Assembly (NCBI GenBank): GCA_030524345.1
Contig: JAUNGP010000006.1
Location: 15,105 to 79,104, forward strand
Length of the DNA stretch: 64,000 bases
Direction: 5' to 3'
Source of the DNA: Clostridia bacterium
GTDB lineage: Bacteria; Bacillota; Clostridia; TANB77; CAG-465
How positions within the stretch are numbered: the stretch's first letter is position 1; the number at the start of each line of letters is the position of its first letter. Of this stretch, positions 2,351 to 31,283 are shown piece by piece. The notes under the pieces were generated by a model. That model did not search any database and was not told the DNA's origin. It saw only the letters and a list, made by a program, of their open reading frames with translations. The position numbers and the translations under genes are program-made.

Positions 2351-2526
2351 TTGACATAATATGAAAAAAAGTGATATAATATAAATATGAATATATAAAT
2401 TAAGTCTCTACAAATTTTAGGGAACTGGTATCCCTTTATATTGTGTAGAACTTTATTTATTTACCATTTTAGGTAGCAAAAAAATAGAAAGGACTCCCAA
2501 GTTATAAAGGGAAAAATGGTGTTATT
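2351..2526 (+). promoter_or_regulatory. promoter plus structured 5' leader, family copy 0
   Basis: TTGACA (2351) and TGnTATAAT (2375-2380). A hairpin at about 2405-2451 (TCTACAA..AGGGA-actggta-TCCCT..TTGTGTAGA) is followed by a U-rich tract. An SD-containing hairpin lies just 5' of the ATG. About 80% identical to the copies at 16.0 and 17.5 kb. Confidence 0.6.
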
Positions 2527-2751
2527 ATGAAAAAGTATGATTTCTTTGGTATGAAACAATTTCTGGTAGGAGGTAAAGCTCATCTTGACGGTGAGACAAT
2601 CATTTCACGGTATCTTATAGGAAACCATAAGATCCTCGTTGAGGACAATGACGACAGTTTTCGAGTTACCGTCGATCGTACTACCCGAGTAGTGGATTCA
2701 GAAGAAAAAGTGGAGGGAATCCTCTTAGGAATCTACCTGGTTACCTATTAA
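2527..2751 (+). CDS. small hypothetical protein (74 aa), GC-elevated, leader-controlled
   Basis: ORF directly after the conserved leader. ATG is preceded by the 4-codon uORF ATGGTGTTATTATGA. A 16-bp perfect terminator follows. Confidence 0.5.
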   Translation: MKKYDFFGMKQFLVGGKAHLDGETIISRYLIGNHKILVEDNDDSFRVTVDRTTRVVDSEEKVEGILLGIYLVTY

Positions 2752-2756
2752 AATGA

Positions 2757-2810
2757 ACACCTTTAAATGTTAGAGAAAATTTTATTTAACATTTAAAGGT
2801 GTATTTTTTG
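2757..2810 (+). terminator. rho-independent terminator
   Basis: 16-bp perfect stem (acacctttaaatgtta / taacatttaaaggtgt) followed by TTTTTTG. Confidence 0.8.
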
Positions 2811-5966: not shown

Positions 5967-6159
5967 TTTATATAATATACATTATTTGTGAATTACAATA
6001 AAACACTTTCAAAAAAGAAATCTCCCTAAAATCAAGTCATGTCTTATTACTTGACACTTTCTTAGATCGTATGTTATAATAAAATTAAGAAAGAGAATAA
6101 ATACTCAATAACTATTTGAGCATGGTCTCAAAATATTATTTCAAGGGGGTGTTGCCATT

Positions 6160-6318
6160 ATGAGGCATGACTTTGATAGATTGGAATTACCTTTCATTAT
6201 GATAAATGATGAGGTAATACAAAAAAATAAAGTTGAAATAGTAGATGAGAAAAATGGATTTAAAATTGAAGCAGCAGTATTTACTATAAGTAGATTAATA
6301 GATGGTTGTATGGAATAA
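6160..6318 (+). CDS. small hypothetical protein (52 aa)
   Basis: ATG preceded by AAGGGGGTG. Not in the ORF track (<60 aa). The antisense 60-aa ORF in the track is probably spurious. Confidence 0.35.
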   Translation: MRHDFDRLELPFIMINDEVIQKNKVEIVDEKNGFKIEAAVFTISRLIDGCME

Positions 6319-6408
6319 TACAACCTTTTTTCTTGTCTTTCAAAAGAAGTTGTGATATAATGTTAACATAAAGTTCAAAGTGCTAGACACAATTGTGAAA
6401 GGAGAAAC

Positions 6409-8760: not shown

Positions 8761-9282
8761 ATGAAAGCTTTTTTTAAGAGTATATATGATGATGCAGAAA
8801 ATATGTTAAAGAAGGATCCAGCAGCCACTAACATTTTTTCTGTTATTTTATTATATCCAGGATTTCATGCAATCTTGATACATAGACTCACGCATCTTTT
8901 ATACCGTAAACATTTGTTCTTTATAGCTAGAGCTATCTCACAACTTACCAGATTTTTTACAGGAATTGAAATACACCCTGGAGCCAAAATTGGAAAGCGA
9001 TTATTTATTGATCATGGCATGGGAATTGTTATTGGTGAAACCGCTATTATTGGGGATGATTGCACTATATATCATCAAGTTACTTTAGGTGGAACAGGAA
9101 AAGAAGCCAAAAAGAGACATCCTACGATAGGAAATGATGTGGTGATCGGATGTGGAAGTAAAGTACTTGGAAATATAACTATTGGAAATCATGTAAAAAT
9201 CGGGGCTAATTCTGTTGTATTAAAAGATATACCAGATCATTCAACTGCAGTTGGAATACCATGTAAAATAATCAAGCGTTGA
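8761..9282 (+). CDS. cysE: serine O-acetyltransferase
   Basis: Left-handed beta-helix hexapeptide repeats ([38 protein letters not shown]). Confidence 0.85.
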
Positions 9283-9356
9283 CATAAAATGAAAGAAATG
9301 ATATAATATGCTCGTTAAAAATAATAATCTAATAAAATTTTTAAAGAGGATAAAAA

Positions 9357-9788
9357 ATGAGTTTTGGTAGTATTTTGAAAGCAGCATCTAGTAATCATGT
9401 AGAAGTAGAGGTATATGAAAAGTTAAAACCATTATTACTTCAGCTTGCAAATGAGCGGGAAAAAGGTTGTAAACTTTTGTTTTTCAATATTAGTGATCTT
9501 GTTATTGAAAAATTAAAAGAGTTGATTCGTAGTGATGATATTTTAGTCCAACAGGATATGATCATTTGGGATGAATCTGCCATTTTAAAGAAAGAGTTTC
9601 CTAAACCCTCTCCGTGTCAAAAATGTTCATTTGAAATGAGAATTGCTTGCTGTGGATGTTCGGAACAACAGGCATGGAAAGAATCCAAAGAAACGGAAAC
9701 CAAAACTGTATATGATGTAGAAAAAGAAATATCAATTACTATGAAAGATAAGGAAATCAGTATACAAATTGAAAAAAGGCGGGAATAA
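9357..9788 (+). CDS. hypothetical protein with C-terminal Cys cluster
   Basis: ORF with SD. CQKCSFEMRIACCGC motif. Confidence 0.45.
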   Translation: MSFGSILKAASSNHVEVEVYEKLKPLLLQLANEREKGCKLLFFNISDLVIEKLKELIRSDDILVQQDMIIWDESAILKKEFPKPSPCQKCSFEMRIACCGCSEQQAWKESKETETKTVYDVEKEISITMKDKEISIQIEKRRE

Positions 9789-14972: not shown

Positions 14973-15138
14973 TTGACATAACATGCAAAAAATGATATAA
15001 TATAGACATGGATAATAAATGAAGTTCTATATGATTATAAAGGACAGGTACCTTATATGAATCATGTGGAACTTTTTTTGTATCACAACAATTAATGAAA
15101 GGATTCCCGTGATAGAAAATAAGGGAAAAGGTGAACTT
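14973..15138 (+). promoter_or_regulatory. promoter plus structured 5' leader, family copy 1 (diverged)
   Basis: TTGACA (14973) and TATAAT (14996). Hairpin ATGATTAT-AAGG-acaggta-CCTT-ATGAATCAT followed by TTTTTTTG. SD hairpin TTCCC...GGGAA. Confidence 0.55.
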
Positions 15139-15936
15139 ATGCAGACAAATGTAAAACACGTAGGAAAAGGCTATGTAGAGGAAGAGTCCTTTGCTGTAAT
15201 AGGTGGTGAAAAATCTGAAACAATAGGCATCGAAAGATATGAAAATGGGATTTTATGGATCGATAAAAATTTTGGTGTCTGTGGTGCTACTATCGGACGT
15301 TGGGCAGAAATTGTCTCCGGGATGTTTGCAAAAGAGGCAAACTTTGAAAGAGAAATTCAAAGAGTATTTGGATCAAGTACTCCCCTTCATACAGTCATTT
15401 TTTATTTTAATAGGGTGAAGGTAAGTGTCAACAAAGAGCATTCTTCTCCAAAAGAGATTGTAGCTTTATGGGAAAGTAATTTTTATAAGCCAAAAAAGAA
15501 CTATCATGAGGCTGCAAATAGCTTAAAAGAGAAGCTGGAATCTATCATCTATTCTGAACTCAGTGGTATTGTAGATGTTGGCTCTATTACAAAGGAGGAT
15601 GCAACTCTAAGTAAGGATCAGCTGGATTTGCTGGAAAAATGCATTCAAAAACTGGTTACCTTAAAGAAGGCAGAAGCCATTTTCAAGTATACGGAAATGG
15701 AATTTGAAAGTGAGCTTTCAAAACAGGAATTTTATTCGATGAAGGATGCATCCACTCTTAAATTTGCAGTAAAATGGGCAAAGGCAATGCAATACTTGAT
15801 GCAAGAGCGGGATGAATCTGCAAGAGCTGTTGGACAGGAAGCAAGCAAAATGGCAGATCCTGATGTTCCTTTTTATGTCGAGGAAATCGCTAAATCCTAT
15901 TTAAAGCGATGCTGGAAATACGGCAATTCTCTGTAG
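15139..15936 (+). CDS. hypothetical protein (265 aa), GC-elevated, leader-controlled
   Basis: ORF starts at MQTNVKHVGKGY directly after the leader. About 40% GC against a genome at about 28%. Confidence 0.55.
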   Translation: MQTNVKHVGKGYVEEESFAVIGGEKSETIGIERYENGILWIDKNFGVCGATIGRWAEIVSGMFAKEANFEREIQRVFGSSTPLHTVIFYFNRVKVSVNKEHSSPKEIVALWESNFYKPKKNYHEAANSLKEKLESIIYSELSGIVDVGSITKEDATLSKDQLDLLEKCIQKLVTLKKAEAIFKYTEMEFESELSKQEFYSMKDASTLKFAVKWAKAMQYLMQERDESARAVGQEASKMADPDVPFYVEEIAKSYLKRCWKYGNSL

Positions 15937-15944
15937 GTTCTGAC

Positions 15945-15968
15945 AAAAGACTCAGCATTAATTTGCTG
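15945..15968 (+). terminator. rho-independent terminator (repeat family gac[ct]cagcattaatttgctgggtc)
   Basis: 9-bp stem followed by a T-run. The same hairpin recurs at 16549 and 18199. Confidence 0.75.
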
Positions 15969-16035
15969 GGTCTTTTAAGATATAAAAACGATTGATAAAG
16001 AGGTCTATTTTAACCAGTACTATCAGCAAGTTAAA

Positions 16036-16291
16036 TTGACATAATGTCAAGAAAGTGATATAATATAAATATGGAACATATAAATTAAGTTTCCACAAAT
16101 TTTGGGAGCTAGTATCCCTTTATATTGTGTGGAACTTTCTTTTTTTTAAAAAATACAATTTTAAGGTACTCGACATACTGAGTTAGGTGCTACAACTTAA
16201 CCTATTCTACACCTGAAAGTAGACAAGTAGCAACAAGTTTTATAGAAAGGATTCCCCACGCAGTATGATAAAGGGGAAAAATGGTGTTATT
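16036..16291 (+). promoter_or_regulatory. promoter plus structured 5' leader, family copy 2
   Basis: TTGACA (16036), 17 nt, TATAAT (16059). Hairpin TTTCCACAA..GGGA-gctagta-TCCC..TTGTGTGGAA followed by CTTTCTTTTTTTT, which is terminator/attenuator-like. A 130-nt spacer. Then the SD hairpin TTCCCC-N15-GGGGAA. Confidence 0.65.
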
Positions 16292-16537
16292 ATGAAAGAA
16301 TTAAAGGGTTTTGAAAGATTACAGGGATTTGACCATATCCTTCCTAGAGGAATTGATATTATTCAGCTGAAGGCTGGACAGGTTCTTTGGATTGATGAAG
16401 ATGGACTGTATATTGCAGAATCAGATGTCATACTTATAGTTGAACATCTAGATATTATCTATGATCCGGCTGACAGCCAACATGGCAGATTATGGTGGAA
16501 TTGTAGTGATGTTATCAAAGAAATTCCGCTGAAATAA
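16292..16537 (+). CDS. small hypothetical protein (81 aa), GC-elevated, leader-controlled
   Basis: Starts at MKELKGF. The 4-codon uORF ATGGTGTTATTATGA overlaps its ATG. Paralogous N-terminus with the 17747 ORF. Confidence 0.5.
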   Translation: MKELKGFERLQGFDHILPRGIDIIQLKAGQVLWIDEDGLYIAESDVILIVEHLDIIYDPADSQHGRLWWNCSDVIKEIPLK

Positions 16538-16548
16538 ATTTTCCATAT

Positions 16549-16573
16549 GTTCTGAAAAGGACCCAGCATTAAT
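16549..16573 (+). terminator. rho-independent terminator (repeat family)
   Basis: ggacccagcattaatttgctgggtc followed by TTATTTTTATTT. Confidence 0.8.
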
Positions 16574-16654
16574 TTGCTGGGTCTTATTTTTATTTGATAT
16601 TAGAACAAATGTTTATATATGCTACATATACCAATTTTAGTCTATATTTTTTTC

Positions 16655-16683
16655 TTGAAATACCAAATCTTATATGTTACAAT
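16655..16683 (+). promoter_or_regulatory. sigma-A-type promoter for whiA (duplicated copy at 18295)
   Basis: TTGAAA, 17 nt, TACAAT. Confidence 0.6.
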
Positions 16684-16705
16684 ATACTTAATTTGAGGTG
16701 GTAAT

Positions 16706-17446
16706 ATGTCATTTTCATCCGATGTTAAAGATGAAATATTAAAAAACTTTTCGGGAAATCAAAAAACGTGTTGTATTAAAGCTGAAAAATTTGGTGAATA
16801 CTTAACATCAGTACCATTAAAAAATATATTAGGCAATGAATTTAAAGAATATTTAGATATATCCAAACTGAAAGAATGTTGTATTAAGTCAATCTTAAAA
16901 GGCGTGTTTTTAGGTTCTGGCTGTATTGTCGATCCAATGTTAGATTATCATTTTGAAGTAATATTTAAAAATAAAGCTTGCGGAGAGTATATTTTGAATT
17001 TGCTATCAGTACTTGATTTTACTCCTAAAATGATCAAGAGAAAAAAGCAAAATGTGGTATATTTTAAAGAATCAGAACAAATATCTCTTTTTTTGAGTAT
17101 TCTTGGAGCAAATAATGCTGTTTTAAAATTTGAGCAAATACGAGTTGAAAAAGAAGTTAAAAATAGTATCAATAGAACTACTAACTGTGAAACAGCCAAT
17201 TTATCTAAAACAATTAATTCAGCTGTAAAGCAAATAGAGGCGATTAAAAAACTAAAAGAACATGGTAAGTTTGCCTCTTTAAATGATAAATTAAAATATA
17301 CTGCAAATTTACGTTTAAAGTATCCAACAGAAAGCTTAGATTATATAGCATCTAAGACGGCAAAAGATGAAAAAAATAAAATTAGCAAATCTGGTTTAAA
17401 GCATAGATTAGATAAACTGATTCAACTTGCTGCAGAAATAAAATAA
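16706..17446 (+). CDS. whiA: DNA-binding protein WhiA, N-terminally shortened (246 aa)
   Basis: NCETANLSKTI and ISKSGLKHRLDKL (C-terminal HTH) motifs. One LAGLIDADG-like segment (FLGSGCIVDP...YHFEVIF). About 65 aa of the first LAGLIDADG-like domain are absent relative to the Bacillus-type WhiA I recall. Confidence 0.8.
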   Translation: MSFSSDVKDEILKNFSGNQKTCCIKAEKFGEYLTSVPLKNILGNEFKEYLDISKLKECCIKSILKGVFLGSGCIVDPMLDYHFEVIFKNKACGEYILNLLSVLDFTPKMIKRKKQNVVYFKESEQISLFLSILGANNAVLKFEQIRVEKEVKNSINRTTNCETANLSKTINSAVKQIEAIKKLKEHGKFASLNDKLKYTANLRLKYPTESLDYIASKTAKDEKNKISKSGLKHRLDKLIQLAAEIK

Positions 17447-17492
17447 CATTTTTGGCATAATTAGTACTTATAATATCTATAAGCAAGTTAAA

Positions 17493-17746
17493 TTGACATA
17501 ATGTTAAGAAAGTGATATAATATAAATATGGAACATATAAATTAAGTTTCCACAAATTTTGGGAGCTAGTATCCCTTTATATTGTGTGGAACTTTCTTTT
17601 TTTTAAAAAATACAATTTTAAGGTACTCGACATACTGAGTTAGGTGCTACAACTTAACCTATTCTACACCTGAAAGTAGACAAGTAGCAACAAGTTTTAT
17701 AGAAAGGATTCCCCACAGTATGATAAAGGGGAAAAATGGTGTTATT
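17493..17746 (+). promoter_or_regulatory. promoter plus structured 5' leader, family copy 3
   Basis: Nearly identical to copy 2 over about 270 nt. Confidence 0.65.
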
Positions 17747-18172
17747 ATGAAAGAATTAAGACAGTTTTACTTTGGAGATCTTAATAGTGTATCTGTTGCT
17801 CCTGAAGAGGTAACCGTGATCCAGCTAAAAGCCGGTGAATCCATTGAGGTCCATAGGGAACTCTATACAGCACCGATTGATCAAACTTTAGTTGTCGACC
17901 GGTTACGGATTCGGAAAGGCAAAGCTAGTTGTACGATGATTCGTCAGATTATTGACGGATTTCAGGTCCAGCAGTTTCCGGTTCGACCGGATCGCTTCTT
18001 GAGAAGAGTGGCAAGTAACAAAGGATTTAAGACCATAATTGTTCCGGGCGGAATCACTCCGCTGACTAGATACGGCTATGTACCTGTTCCGGATTTCAAC
18101 ATGAATGGTACTACTTACTTCCTGTTTCCCTATAGCTTTTTTAAGAAGCTGACAGCACCGAAAGAAGCTTGA
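17747..18172 (+). CDS. hypothetical protein (141 aa), GC-elevated, leader-controlled
   Basis: Starts at MKELRQF. The N-terminal ~30 aa are paralogous to the 16292 ORF (shared IQLKAG); the rest is unrelated. Confidence 0.5.
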   Translation: MKELRQFYFGDLNSVSVAPEEVTVIQLKAGESIEVHRELYTAPIDQTLVVDRLRIRKGKASCTMIRQIIDGFQVQQFPVRPDRFLRRVASNKGFKTIIVPGGITPLTRYGYVPVPDFNMNGTTYFLFPYSFFKKLTAPKEA

Positions 18173-18198
18173 TCCCACACCACCATATGTTCTGAAAA

Positions 18199-18223
18199 AG
18201 GACCCAGCATTAATTTGCTGGGT
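18199..18223 (+). terminator. rho-independent terminator (repeat family)
   Basis: Identical to the hairpin at 16549. Confidence 0.8.
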
Positions 18224-18294
18224 CTTATTTTTATTTGATATTAGAACAAATGTTTATATATGCTACATATACCAATTTTAGTCTATATTTTTTC

Positions 18295-18323
18295 TTGAAA
18301 TACCAAATCTTATATGTTACAAT
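18295..18323 (+). promoter_or_regulatory. sigma-A-type promoter for hemW (duplicate of 16655)
   Basis: TTGAAA, 17 nt, TACAAT, lying within a 160-nt segment identical to 16540-16700. Confidence 0.6.
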
Positions 18324-18360
18324 ATACTTAGTTTAGAGATACATATATAGGAGGATTATC

Positions 18361-23443: not shown

Positions 23444-23604
23444 TAGTGTATATTATAGAGATAATGATTCAGACCAAAATAGTTAAAGAGGCAAGTATAT
23501 ATGCTTTTTTAACTATTTTTTGACATATTAAATGAATGATGATATAATGTATAGCACACTTTATAAAATAATGATTCTAAAAATTTGGAAAAGGAGAAAA
23601 CATA

Positions 23605-24918
23605 ATGAATGATATGCAAATTGTAAAATGTGGAACTACTCAGCGGATAGCAAGCTATGAATTTTTAAATTGGCACGAATTGCCAATTGAGGTAAGACAA
23701 TATTTTAAATGTATTGGTCCGCTTATGGATTCCGATGATCATATGGAATTAAAAGTCCAAAAGATTTATTATAATGGTGGTGGTGAGCTTGTAAACTATG
23801 GACTGAATGCTTTCGTAAGAGATATTTATTGTTTTGAAAGTTATTCAAACTCCAGGGTATATGTCATATATTCTGATAGGTTTGGTAGATATTATGAGGT
23901 AAGGGATCGTAAGATTGCCCAATTTATTTATGATGCTCATCTTTGTATAAGCGCTGAGGGAGTGCTGCTTTTTTACTGTACAGAAAATAATATCAATTCA
24001 ATTGTTTATGCCACTTTAAACTGTAAATCTGGAACTACAATAAGTGCTTATAATTTTACAAAGCCATATAAAAATAATATCATTACGGATATATTTACAT
24101 ATGATGATATAACCTTTGTTGAAGTGAAAGGAGAAAATAATCTTGACAAATATTATTATGCTCTAAATTTTTCCTTTAAATTATTTGAAGCCTATGGAAC
24201 GCAAATCTATATTGAAGTTCATAGACTACAAGGCTCACGCACTGATATTTTTAATAATGATTTTAAATATGAACATATACAGAGCCGTATTGAAGCATCA
24301 GACCGATTACTTTCATTATCCCAAGTAAGAAGAAATTATTCTTTAGTAGAATTTAAAAAACGTTTTGGGAAGAAAGCTTGTTGTGAGAAAAGGGAAAAAT
24401 TAGAGACAAATTATGAACATCAAATCGAAACAAGCATTATTTCATATGCTGGAGATCCTGGAATTGATGATTGTATTAATTCTTTTGTGTCTCACCTAGT
24501 AGTTCTATGTCCTACAATTTCAAAAAAGATAGGCTTATTTAGACGTATTGAATATCATAAAAATATTATTATTCAAATAGATCGATTTGGTGATGATCAC
24601 ATTCATTCTAATATTCCCGAATATATATCTATTTCAGGGATGAACTTATATGTCTCTCCGGAAGGAATTATACTTGGTATTAACTCCAATTTCTTATACG
24701 TGTCTCTTGATGGGATCGTTTGGAAACGCTATAAGCTTGAGGAACTTACCAAAGACGAGACTTTTTACTCTGCTTTTATATCTTTTAATGATGGGGAAGT
24801 TCGTTTAAATGTAACACTTTCAGGAGAAAAAAAACAATATTTTATTTTAAACTTCAAATTTGATTTTTGGAATTTATACACTTCTCCTGTTGAGGTCTAC
24901 ATGAATCAGGGTAATTAA
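23605..24918 (+). CDS. hypothetical protein (437 aa)
   Basis: SD AAGGAG. Terminator hairpin after the stop (about 24925-24972). Confidence 0.5.
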   Translation: MNDMQIVKCGTTQRIASYEFLNWHELPIEVRQYFKCIGPLMDSDDHMELKVQKIYYNGGGELVNYGLNAFVRDIYCFESYSNSRVYVIYSDRFGRYYEVRDRKIAQFIYDAHLCISAEGVLLFYCTENNINSIVYATLNCKSGTTISAYNFTKPYKNNIITDIFTYDDITFVEVKGENNLDKYYYALNFSFKLFEAYGTQIYIEVHRLQGSRTDIFNNDFKYEHIQSRIEASDRLLSLSQVRRNYSLVEFKKRFGKKACCEKREKLETNYEHQIETSIISYAGDPGIDDCINSFVSHLVVLCPTISKKIGLFRRIEYHKNIIIQIDRFGDDHIHSNIPEYISISGMNLYVSPEGIILGINSNFLYVSLDGIVWKRYKLEELTKDETFYSAFISFNDGEVRLNVTLSGEKKQYFILNFKFDFWNLYTSPVEVYMNQGN

Positions 24919-26532: not shown

Positions 26533-26699
26533 AAAAGCATGCCGAACTAGGGAAAAACCTTAGTTTTCATATATCAACCTCTTATGATCGCCTCTATAGT
26601 AATGTAGAGGCATCTATTTTTTTGTTCAAAACTAAGTTGACATAAATTTGTAGTTGTGATATAATAAGATTATATTTAATAAAGGAGGGTAATTTAACT

Positions 26700-27164
26700 A
26701 TGATTACCGAAAAACAATATCCCTATCGTGTACTTCAATACGAATGGGAACGGCTTTATCCTTGGGTAAACAAAGCATTTTCCGAGCTGGATCATTTATT
26801 TTATCTTAGCTCTACGGAGTATGAGGTTTTCTTTGACAAATTCGGCGTTCATATCTGCCAAAGAGGAAAAGATTCTCTCTTTTCGTTTAACAGTAATCTT
26901 TTTCCCACTATCAAGCAGCGTCATGATGAGATCTGTAAGCAAATTGGTCCCTATGTACCAGAAACTATGAGTGCAAAGATAAAGCTTATCTGTAAACATT
27001 TTGGAGACATCAAAGATATTCCGGACTTGGAAAGTATTTGGCTTAAGGGAGAAAAGGATTTTGTTATTGAGTATCTGTATTCAATAGTAGATGATAATAA
27101 GAAGAAGCAGTCACAGAAAAAGTGTGATTTAATGAATCATTTACTGGATATGGTTGAGTATTAA
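26700..27164 (+). CDS. hypothetical protein, GC-elevated
   Basis: Own promoter (TTGACA / TGTGATATAAT) and SD AAAGGAGGG. Confidence 0.5.
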   Translation: MITEKQYPYRVLQYEWERLYPWVNKAFSELDHLFYLSSTEYEVFFDKFGVHICQRGKDSLFSFNSNLFPTIKQRHDEICKQIGPYVPETMSAKIKLICKHFGDIKDIPDLESIWLKGEKDFVIEYLYSIVDDNKKKQSQKKCDLMNHLLDMVEY

Positions 27165-30799: not shown

Positions 30800-31102
30800 T
30801 TAATGATAGATAGGTATCAATAAAGTTTGACCTTTATATATATTACTAGATGACATATGATTAACATCTTGTATGTCATATATTACTTTTTGTATATCCA
30901 TATTATTTTTTTTAGAAATATCGCCTGCAATATTCCATAAAGTATCTTTATCATTTACTATAATACTGTAAGTTTTTACTTCTTCTTTACCAAGCTCATA
31001 GACAGTAATAAGTCTAAATAAGGAAAATATTGCGAAAGCAATTAGAATATTTGATATCATCTTTTTTACATTTATTTTGTAATTAATACTACATTTTACC
31101 AT
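30800..31102 (-). CDS. small membrane-anchored LysM-domain protein
   Basis: N-terminal TM. YSIIVNDKDTLWNIAGDISKK...GQTLLIPI is LysM-like. Confidence 0.6.
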   Translation of the reverse strand: MVKCSINYKINVKKMISNILIAFAIFSLFRLITVYELGKEEVKTYSIIVNDKDTLWNIAGDISKKNNMDIQKVIYDIQDVNHMSSSNIYKGQTLLIPIYH

Positions 31103-31283
31103 AAAATCACCTCATAAAACATTTGTTCTTTTAACTAATATTATTATAGTACATGAACAAATGTTTGTCAATAGCTTTTTGAAATAAAAAAGAATAAATG
31201 TTCGATTATATAGGAGAATAAAAAGATACCGTTCTTTAAGCGATATCTTTTTTACTTTCTAGAATTCAAGTTATGCACACTAT

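Follow-up and report, generated by a model that had tools for sequence, protein, structure and literature searches.

A recurrent promoter and folded leader before orphan genes in a Clostridia chromosome segment

The question raised by this locus is why one promoter, followed by one folded leader, should recur in front of genes that have little in common. The locus lies in a stretch of 64,000 nucleotides (nt) from a Clostridia bacterium (lineage TANB77, CAG-465; assembly GCA_030524345.1, contig JAUNGP010000006.1, positions 15,105 to 79,104 of the forward strand), which is referred to here as the window and is a 29% GC chromosome segment. The repeat is real and conserved, and it represents a leader family that is not in the catalogues and whose phylogenetic range is limited. 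This is probably a new on/off leader and unlikely to be a riboswitch, having no aptamer-like conserved core. The reading tentatively put forward, judged from sequence, is that of a portable expression leader for accessory cassettes, which would act mainly as a promoter-proximal transcription attenuator and insulator, possibly triggered by a ribosome. On the basis of six distinct sequences it would best be filed as terminator-based attenuation on a mobile promoter.

Copies of the module in the window and in relatives

Repeat finding and alignment located four copies of the module, with starts at 2351, 14973, 16036 and 17493, and the shared architecture that a preliminary description had proposed for all four was present in each. 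They represent only three independent versions, as copies 16036 and 17493 share 99% identity in a stretch of 240 nt, with sharp edges of homology at the fourth cargo codon and the terminator of the cassette. Copies 2351 and 16036 share blocks of 33-50 nt at 86-88% identity, and GAAAGGAYTCCC is found 4 times where 0.22 would be expected by chance. The copies have the properties by which mobile promoters are recognised, namely at least 50-100 nt of upstream sequence at 80% identity or more before non-homologous genes of one genome. The parts are listed below, where T is the terminator hairpin, E the GAAAGGA element, S a short hairpin within E and LR the long-range helix that joins E to the 3' half of T. 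Cargo is the open reading frame (ORF) downstream of each module, a cassette is a module with its cargo ORF and own terminator, uORF is a short ORF upstream of the cargo, and bit scores are those of R1, a covariance model built from six sequences.

2351..2380, + strand: module 1 promoter, TTGACA, 18 nt and TGATATAAT, 12/12 with TG
2387..2398, + strand: module 1 mini-ORF ATGAATATATAA, MNI and stop, its ATG 6 nt past the -10 element at the predicted transcription start site (TSS)
2402..2462, + strand: module 1 T and U-run, outer stem TCTACA/TGTAGA, inner stem AGGGA/TCCCT; -17.6 kcal/mol, z -2.8, 75 bits
2487..2513, + strand: module 1 E, GAAAGGACTCCC...GGGAA, able to fold on itself (S) or to pair with the 3' half of T in a duplex of 26 bp, -18 kcal/mol
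2516..2530, + strand: module 1 uORF ATGGTGTTATTATGA of four codons, overlapping the cargo start (by inspection)
2518-2521, + strand: module 1 likely Shine-Dalgarno sequence GGTG, inside the uORF (by inspection)
2527..2751, + strand: cargo ORF 1, 74 amino acids (aa), no known family
2757..2809, + strand: cassette 1 terminator (by inspection)
14973..15001, + strand: module 2 promoter, 12/12 with TG
15008..15022, + strand: module 2 mini-ORF, MDNK and stop, ATG 6 nt past the -10 element
15021..15080, + strand: module 2 T and U-run, -21.4 kcal/mol, z -5.1, 70 bits
15097..15127, + strand: module 2 E, GAAAGGATTCCC...GGGAA, duplex with the 3' half of T of 22 bp, -20.2 kcal/mol
15129-15134, + strand: module 2 Shine-Dalgarno sequence AGGTGA
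15139..15936, + strand: cargo ORF 2, 265 aa, C-terminal Tad4 match
15946..15977, + strand: cassette 2 terminator, akin to the terminators of cassettes 3 and 4 (repeat family)
16036..16064, + strand: module 3 promoter, 12/12 with TG
16071..16088, + strand: module 3 mini-ORF, MEHIN and stop
16087..16147, + strand: module 3 T and U-run
16148..16244, + strand: module 3 long spacer with three small hairpins
16245..16278, + strand: module 3 E, duplex with the 3' half of T of 26 bp, -29.2 kcal/mol
16281-16295, + strand: module 3 uORF, with Shine-Dalgarno sequence GGTG at 16283-16286
16292..16537, + strand: cargo ORF 3, 81 aa
17493..17521, + strand: module 4 promoter, 12/12 with TG
17528..17545, + strand: module 4 mini-ORF, MEHIN and stop
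17544..17604, + strand: module 4 T and U-run, matched by R1
17702..17733, + strand: module 4 E, with a 2-nt deletion relative to module 3; duplex with the 3' half of T of 25 bp, -26.9 kcal/mol
17747..18172, + strand: cargo ORF 4, 141 aa

The sigma-A promoter proposed for each copy is borne out, with an extended -10 element; all four consist of TTGACA, 17-18 nt and TATAAT with an upstream TG, and score 12/12. Promoters of the consensus form TTGACATAA...TGnTATAAT are common in this genome and its relatives, and the promoter alone is therefore not distinctive.

Syntenic contigs of relatives were fetched by means of PrmC homologues, the best of which was 69% identical. A search with R1 of 189 kb, comprising the window and the related loci, recovered all complete copies at an E-value of 1e-7 or below; the further copies in related genomes that the preliminary description had suggested seeking do exist. 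No other region of the 189 kb fell below an E-value of 0.2 except reverse-strand reads of the same hairpins, and no extra copies appeared in the window or in loci L018, L019, L021 and L046 (PrmC 48-65% identical). A complete but much diverged copy is on the minus strand of L017 (PrmC 50% identical) before a 151-aa orphan gene. In L007 and L008 a promoter, ATG, hairpin and U-run stand directly after prmC with neither E nor an ORF, and the own promoter of the whiA-like gene is directly downstream. The parts are thus found separately, L007 having T only and L046 a leader that has only E and a hairpin, GAAAGGGAUUCUAAUUUAGAAUUAGGUGAG, without T, before an 86-aa orphan gene. Three copies of another repeated promoter, TTGACAWAATATATTTTCTGTGATATAAT, are also present in L046; these features of L046 lie at 585-700, 989-1016 and 1608-1636.

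Two further copies are truncated, that of L012 after the promoter and ATGAAA and a long-spacer copy in L013, and both contigs stop within the module (L012 6077-6117, L013 3100-3257), as would be expected if a multi-copy module breaks short-read assemblies. A decayed module at 2237-2672 of L009 retains only the outer stem of T and the start of the spacer and lacks the promoter; it is followed by an unannotated 39-aa ORF with its own terminator, and there is no Rfam match.

The leader could not be assigned to a known family in the preliminary description, and this stands, as an Rfam scan of the window and 8 related loci gave no match at the gathering score and only chance-level ones at E-values up to 10. 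Exact-pattern scans for E in viral, genome and metagenome collections, which exclude the window's own genome, gave only chance hits in unrelated high-GC organisms. A promoter-ATG-hairpin pattern had 24 hits in viral contigs, none of which passed the covariance model, and module plus cargo had no match in phage genomes by blastn or tblastn.

Terminator, mini-ORF and long-range pairing

Each window copy has a long imperfect hairpin and U-run between promoter and ORF. It begins 22-27 nt past the -10 element and ~15-20 nt past the predicted TSS, which is nearer than the 30 nt or so first given for it. As isolated RNAs the T hairpins have folding energies between -16.7 and -22.7 kcal/mol (z-scores from -2.0 to -5.1 relative to dinucleotide shuffles), and a stable hairpin running directly into a U-run in this position is what defines an intrinsic terminator, so that the terminator-like character first ascribed to it is upheld. 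The compensatory covariation claimed for it also holds over six distinct sequences, including those from other genomes: pairing is kept in 81% of hairpin cells of a model-based alignment, 6 pairs show changes on both sides, the covariation score was reached by 3/500 shuffles and every slid control was lower. Conservation does not extend to the apical stem and loop outside the window, the loop being AUAGAAAC in L007 and ACUUGAUUA in L017, and the L013 hairpin lacks the GGGA/UCCC stem. By inspection, the T of module 2 is the sole terminator after prmC (stop codon 14943) and that of module 4 the sole terminator after the whiA-like gene (stop codon 17446).

Two features go beyond the preliminary description on the present reading of the sequence, an ATG at the predicted TSS and the long-range pairing of T with E. 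The ATG lies exactly 6 nt past the -10 element in 6/7 copies, with a variable hexamer between (ATAAAT, ATAGAC, ATAAGT, AATAGT), and the RNA is predicted to start at the AUG or within 1 nt of it. The exception is L013, which has no ATG and also a 5-nt deletion in the promoter spacer. The mini-ORFs have 3-8 codons (MNI, MDNK, MEHIN, MKYIKYSI, MRIII), and in 5/5 complete copies with the ATG the stop codon shares bases with the start of the T stem, which is the overlap looked for between a leader ORF and a regulatory helix in ribosome-mediated attenuation. None has a Shine-Dalgarno sequence; with the ATG 6 nt past the -10 element, translation of the mini-ORF would therefore require leaderless use of a 5' AUG.

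The 3' half of T consists of its inner 3' strand, outer 3' arm and U-run. It can form 20-26 bp with E, whose pattern GAAAGGAYUCCC...GGGRAA precedes the start codon in each copy. The duplexes have energies of -18 to -29 kcal/mol, 0/500 shuffles of E were as strong in any copy, and at most 2/56 real upstream regions of the window matched the pairing. In copies 14973 and 16036 and in L017 the own E is the best partner of the 3' half of T, and this copy-specific match amounts to covariation between distant segments. T (segments 1:2), LR (2:3+4) and S (3:4) are mutually exclusive. Folding of the full leader gives LR as the minimum-energy structure in copies 16036 and 17493 and in L017, and with the 5' arm blocked it does so in all five leaders. 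Structures that exclude the terminator are therefore predicted in silico, LR being one and the other a weak nascent hairpin, H1', in which the outer 5' arm can pair with the inner 5' strand together with the loop's first bases. E is described here as an alternative pairing partner and not as a plain duplicate of the 5' half of T, because direct similarity to that half is significant in copy 2351 only.

Other candidate roles were tried and set aside. An in-frame start behind GAAAGGA is seen in three copies and is missing from copy 2351 and L017. For the 5' tail a classical antiterminator role was considered, in which it would pair with the 5' arm of T, but by eye this pairing is not kept from copy to copy, and as CsrA sites the GGA motifs are inconsistent and lie within stems. 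Another comparison is with STAB-SD, an element of the Bacillus thuringiensis cryIIIA mRNA. The likeness lies in an invariant, Shine-Dalgarno-like GAAAGGA in the 5' untranslated region that has no start codon at working distance in all copies; in the module it lies 35-45 nt before the start and could be sequestered by the U-rich tail of the terminator.

A second hairpin had been proposed in which TTCCCC masks GGGGAA as the Shine-Dalgarno sequence immediately before the ATG. The hairpin can form, with only 4-6 bp in the TTCCC(C)/GGG(G)AA pairing, but GGGGAA ends 13-14 nt before the ATG in three copies and 11 nt before it in copy 14973. That distance is too great for it to be the Shine-Dalgarno sequence of the cargo, and GGTG (AGGTGA in copy 14973), which lies between the two at the usual spacing of ~7 nt by inspection, is better placed. 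The uORF ATGGTGTTATTATGA recurs at 2516-2530, 16281-16295 and 17736-17750, and its stop codon overlaps the cargo start (ATGA). It is identical in three modules with different cargo, which suggests a coupling of cargo translation to it by termination and reinitiation.

How the leader may act

The module would be laid out as sigma-A promoter, mini-ORF with a 5' AUG, T, spacer, E and ribosome-binding site, followed by the cargo and its own terminator. By default T would form and stop transcripts from the module's own promoter, yielding an RNA of ~75 nt, and it would also block read-through from the gene upstream. Read-through would require that the 5' arm of T be occupied, and the likeliest occupant would be a 70S ribosome that has loaded on the 5'-terminal AUG and moves on until it meets the stop codon where T begins. 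E would then capture the freed 3' strand and lock the read-through transcript in a non-terminator fold.

A number of points weigh against this account. Only six distinct module sequences are available, and the conservation of the ATG represents few independent observations, as the copies are of shared ancestry. Short ORFs that end early are expected in sequence of 25-30% GC, and the five mini-peptide sequences have no regulatory or sensing codon and no stalling peptide in common. The window for ribosome loading would be ~55 nt of transcription time, RNA polymerase of Firmicutes tends to outpace ribosomes, and leaderless initiation is not known to be common in Clostridia. As to a possible effect on cargo translation, the ribosome-binding site changes little in predicted accessibility when the 5' arm is blocked, and it does not do so consistently. 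The L007 copy, which has neither E nor cargo, suggests that the 5' part may function alone.

The nearest parallels to the proposed ribosome-triggered attenuator are the erm leaders. The ermC attenuator is translational and that of ermK both transcriptional and translational, its helix 1:2 being a terminator. The module resembles them in having a short leader ORF on segment 1 and mutually exclusive helices 1:2, 2:3 and 3:4, and, as proposed here, in that a ribosome on segment 1 would free segment 2 for downstream pairing. It differs in that the leader ORF of 3-8 codons has no Shine-Dalgarno sequence and lies at the predicted 5' end, there is no conserved stalling peptide, the cargo is an orphan gene and not a resistance gene, and the 2:3 pairing does not clearly free the cargo's ribosome-binding site. 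In mycobacteria, leaderless short ORFs encoding polycysteine form attenuators in which an inhibitory RNA duplex is kept from forming by ribosome occupancy (Canestrari et al., bioRxiv 10.1101/834739). The likeness would lie in a leaderless short ORF at the 5' end of the transcript, which for the module is only predicted; the mycobacterial attenuators belong to Actinobacteria, work at the level of translation and use runs of Cys codons to sense cysteine, whereas the structure that would be blocked in the module is an intrinsic terminator without a codon signature in a Clostridia host.

A further development of the attenuator is that it might be a self-insulating, promoter-specific antitermination device, portable and independent of context, though this must be considered quite improbable. 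Only RNAs from the own promoter would carry the AUG at the 5' end and so load a ribosome without a Shine-Dalgarno sequence; the ribosome would melt the terminator and E would capture the freed 3' strand. Transcripts reading in from upstream would hold the AUG internally, leave it untranslated and be terminated. If this were true, new genes, among them one with an anti-defence-like Tad4 domain, could be inserted directly behind housekeeping genes.

An unlikely alternative is that the stretch from promoter to U-run is a gene for a small RNA of ~75 nt, with the cargo expressed by leakage and the RNA or 5' leader pairing with E-type sites. L007 and L008, with intact promoter, hairpin and U-run and neither E nor ORF, are what a stand-alone unit should look like, and are the only loci where one is seen, every window copy having E and an ORF behind it, although the L007 copy may instead act on the downstream whiA-like gene by read-through. 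The promoters are of consensus strength, and the 3' half of T is complementary to E across copies as well (copy 2351 against copy 16036, -20 to -24 kcal/mol); such pairing in trans would nevertheless have to open T, at -15 to -22 kcal/mol, for a similar gain, and the own E in cis is usually the best partner. Nor was a conserved single-stranded seed found, as neither the apical loop, where a seed usually lies, nor the 5' tail is the same from one genome to another.

Antitermination dependent on a protein, which might be a trans-acting RNA-binding protein that stabilises H1' or a factor that loads at the promoter and modifies RNA polymerase, would make the cassettes one regulon and has a similarly low probability. 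H1' is possible in all six copies at -3.8 to -8.1 kcal/mol, and its loop bases track the foot of the stem, AGU with ACU or GCU (window, L017) and UAU with AUA (L007). When compared with shuffles, however, 6 to 66 of 300 fold as well, so that H1' is not significant in most copies. In the BglG/SacY systems a RAT hairpin overlaps the 5' arm of the terminator, much as the weak H1' does; here no RAT-like consensus, nearby PRD-domain regulator or sugar genes were seen, although no dedicated RAT or PRD search was made. A strong constitutive promoter with a close terminator is also the logic of lambda PR'-tR', which gives a short RNA unless the polymerase is made terminator-resistant by Q, and unrelated cargo behind one leader would suggest a common signal. 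Yet no Q-like gene or binding element was found for the modules, which lie outside prophage and had no match in the phage and viral collections. No antiterminator candidate was seen in the window or in Pfam scans of its ORFs of unknown function, and early -10-like sequences are expected by chance in AT-rich DNA.

It is equally improbable that there is no conditional regulation at all, the module being a recently propagated mobile promoter whose leaky terminator damps a strong promoter. The terminator would then merely end the upstream transcript, and gene conversion and recent copying would account for the similarity. Prokaryotes commonly have repeated promoter families (PMC3488235), and L046 shows another. 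The putative mobile promoters described by Matus-Garcia, Nijveen and van Passel (2012, PMC3488235) form a class that is descriptive and implies no mechanism; they likewise have closely similar 5' regulatory regions before non-homologous genes within and across genomes, and the module adds to these a structured leader in which a terminator has a long-range partner. Also in keeping with passive spread are the 99% identity and sharp edges of copies 3 and 4, the wide occurrence of consensus promoters in the clade, and the position of T as sole terminator after prmC and the whiA-like gene. Against this, the architecture survives in L017, where PrmC is 50% identical, with substitutions that keep both T and its complementarity to E, the ATG is kept amid varying flanks, and a terminator alone would have no need of a downstream partner of 20-26 bp.

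A ligand-sensing riboswitch, which the preliminary description had left as an option, is very unlikely. It would have to place the aptamer of the long-leader copies in the spacer hairpins enclosed by LR. The spacers of copies 16036 and 17493 have three hairpins, two of which keep their pairing relative to L013 through changes on both sides; LR closes them into a multi-stem junction, and the L017 spacer has four hairpins (leader fold z -5.2). The spacer, measured from the end of the U-run to GAAAGGA, nevertheless varies from 16 to 100 nt, is only 16-24 nt in copies 2351 and 14973 and differs in sequence in L017; it is dispensable, and it is uninformative for the termination decision because it lies 3' of the terminator. 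Only 15-20 nt precede the terminator, leaving no aptamer core ahead of an expression platform. There is no Rfam match, the apical loop is unconserved, no conserved unpaired core nucleotides were seen, and the cargo genes are unrelated orphans with no functional coherence.

Least probable by far is a DNA recombination site, with an attC-like folded hairpin for the capture or exchange of cassettes: the conserved 5' module and 3' terminator around variable ORFs and the breaks of the L012 and L013 contigs within the module would fit, but no integrase or recombinase adjoins the cassettes (an integrase-family gene of L017 is ~16 kb away), these are scattered and not arrayed, the hairpin is inside a transcription unit with a U-run, and no target-site duplications were seen.

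If the attenuator were confirmed, it would establish a new family of cis-regulatory leaders in an uncultured lineage of Clostridia and provide a case, outside Actinobacteria, in which a terminator is controlled by a leaderless mini-ORF. It would also show how a compact promoter-leader unit moves, together with unrelated orphan genes, into intergenic positions of the conserved backbone. It would bear on the insulated expression of newly acquired genes, and its self-contained design may interest builders of genetic parts. Its practical value is limited by the uncultured organism and the six distinct sequences.

Cargo genes and other features of the locus

The backbone of the window has the order rny, hydroxyacyl-CoA dehydratase set, ymdB, cysE, rlmH, murA, rpmE, DUF1385-prmC, whiA-like, hemW, polA. 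In L017 rny is directly followed by a DUF2229 gene and prmC by hemW, and in L018 and L021 prmC, the whiA-like gene and hemW are separated by short gaps. As the backbone genes of these three loci stand without them, the module-bearing genes are insertions into a conserved housekeeping backbone. The sites are after rny (74-aa ORF), after prmC (265- and 81-aa ORFs) and after the whiA-like gene (141-aa ORF).

The cargo ORFs, of 74, 81, 141 and 265 aa in the window and 151 aa in L017, have no known function and are unrelated except for the 81/141 pair. The 265-aa protein (locus tag Q4D02_04060) and the 151-aa protein each match only themselves among 5.8 billion proteins, and exact look-ups of the window proteins found none on record. 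The C-terminal 60 aa of the 265-aa protein match Pfam Tad4 (E-value 1.1e-6, 29.3 bits, cut-off 25), a phage inhibitor of the Thoeris TIR protein ThsB (PMC13402655). Such a match is unexpected for a gene between prmC and the whiA-like gene. The 141-aa protein belongs to a small uncharacterised family, with 25 homologues besides itself among 1.84 billion representatives and the motifs LIVDR, C-TxIRQ, VPGGIxPL and VAVPDFxMSGTxWY. Its AlphaFold2 model has a pLDDT of 92 and no structural neighbour in PDB or BFVD, and the 81-aa protein is related solely to the N-terminal domain of this family. PHROGs and PADLOC scans of the cargo gave nothing significant, the only matches being weak ones to PHROGs of unknown function for the 265-aa cargo and the neighbouring 437-aa ORF. 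A type I or III toxin-antitoxin system was considered and rejected, the cargo being hydrophilic, 74-265 aa long and unrelated, with no tandem RNA repeats.

Cassettes 3 and 4 are followed by a duplicated block of 140 nt in near-exact copy:

16555-16694 = 18196-18334, + strand: bidirectional cassette terminator, GAACAAATGTTT box and second promoter; these three parts span 16558..16694 after cargo ORF 3 and 18199..18334 after cargo ORF 4

The block promoter, TTGAAA-17-TACAAT, serves the whiA-like gene in the first copy and hemW in the second, and a promoter of the same form stands directly before hemW in L017. GAACAAATGTTT is similar to a LexA (Cheo) box; with one mismatch allowed it has 6 occurrences, where 1.3 would be expected. 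Sites include 16603-16614 and 18244-18255, which are the two copies within the duplicated block, 31117-31128 (-), 31155-31166 (+) and 8908-8919 (-). Two copies lie in and just downstream of a consensus promoter at 31143-31171 (-), upstream of a YneA-like ORF of 100 aa at 30800-31102 (-). L007 and L009 have the corresponding box in reverse orientation.

Further perfect TTGACA...TGnTATAAT promoters, without the terminator leader, precede orphan genes at 9279-9788, 6051-6323, 23520-24918 and 26637-27164. Between its cysE and rlmH genes, L017 lacks the 143-aa ORF that the window has at 9357-9788. Lastly, an AT-rich repeat of 61 nt, TATATAATATAYATTATTTGTGAATTACA..., is found at 2819-2879 and 5969-6029 with 77% identity; its first copy lies where backbone homology with L017 resumes after cassette 1 and its second after the dehydratase operon.

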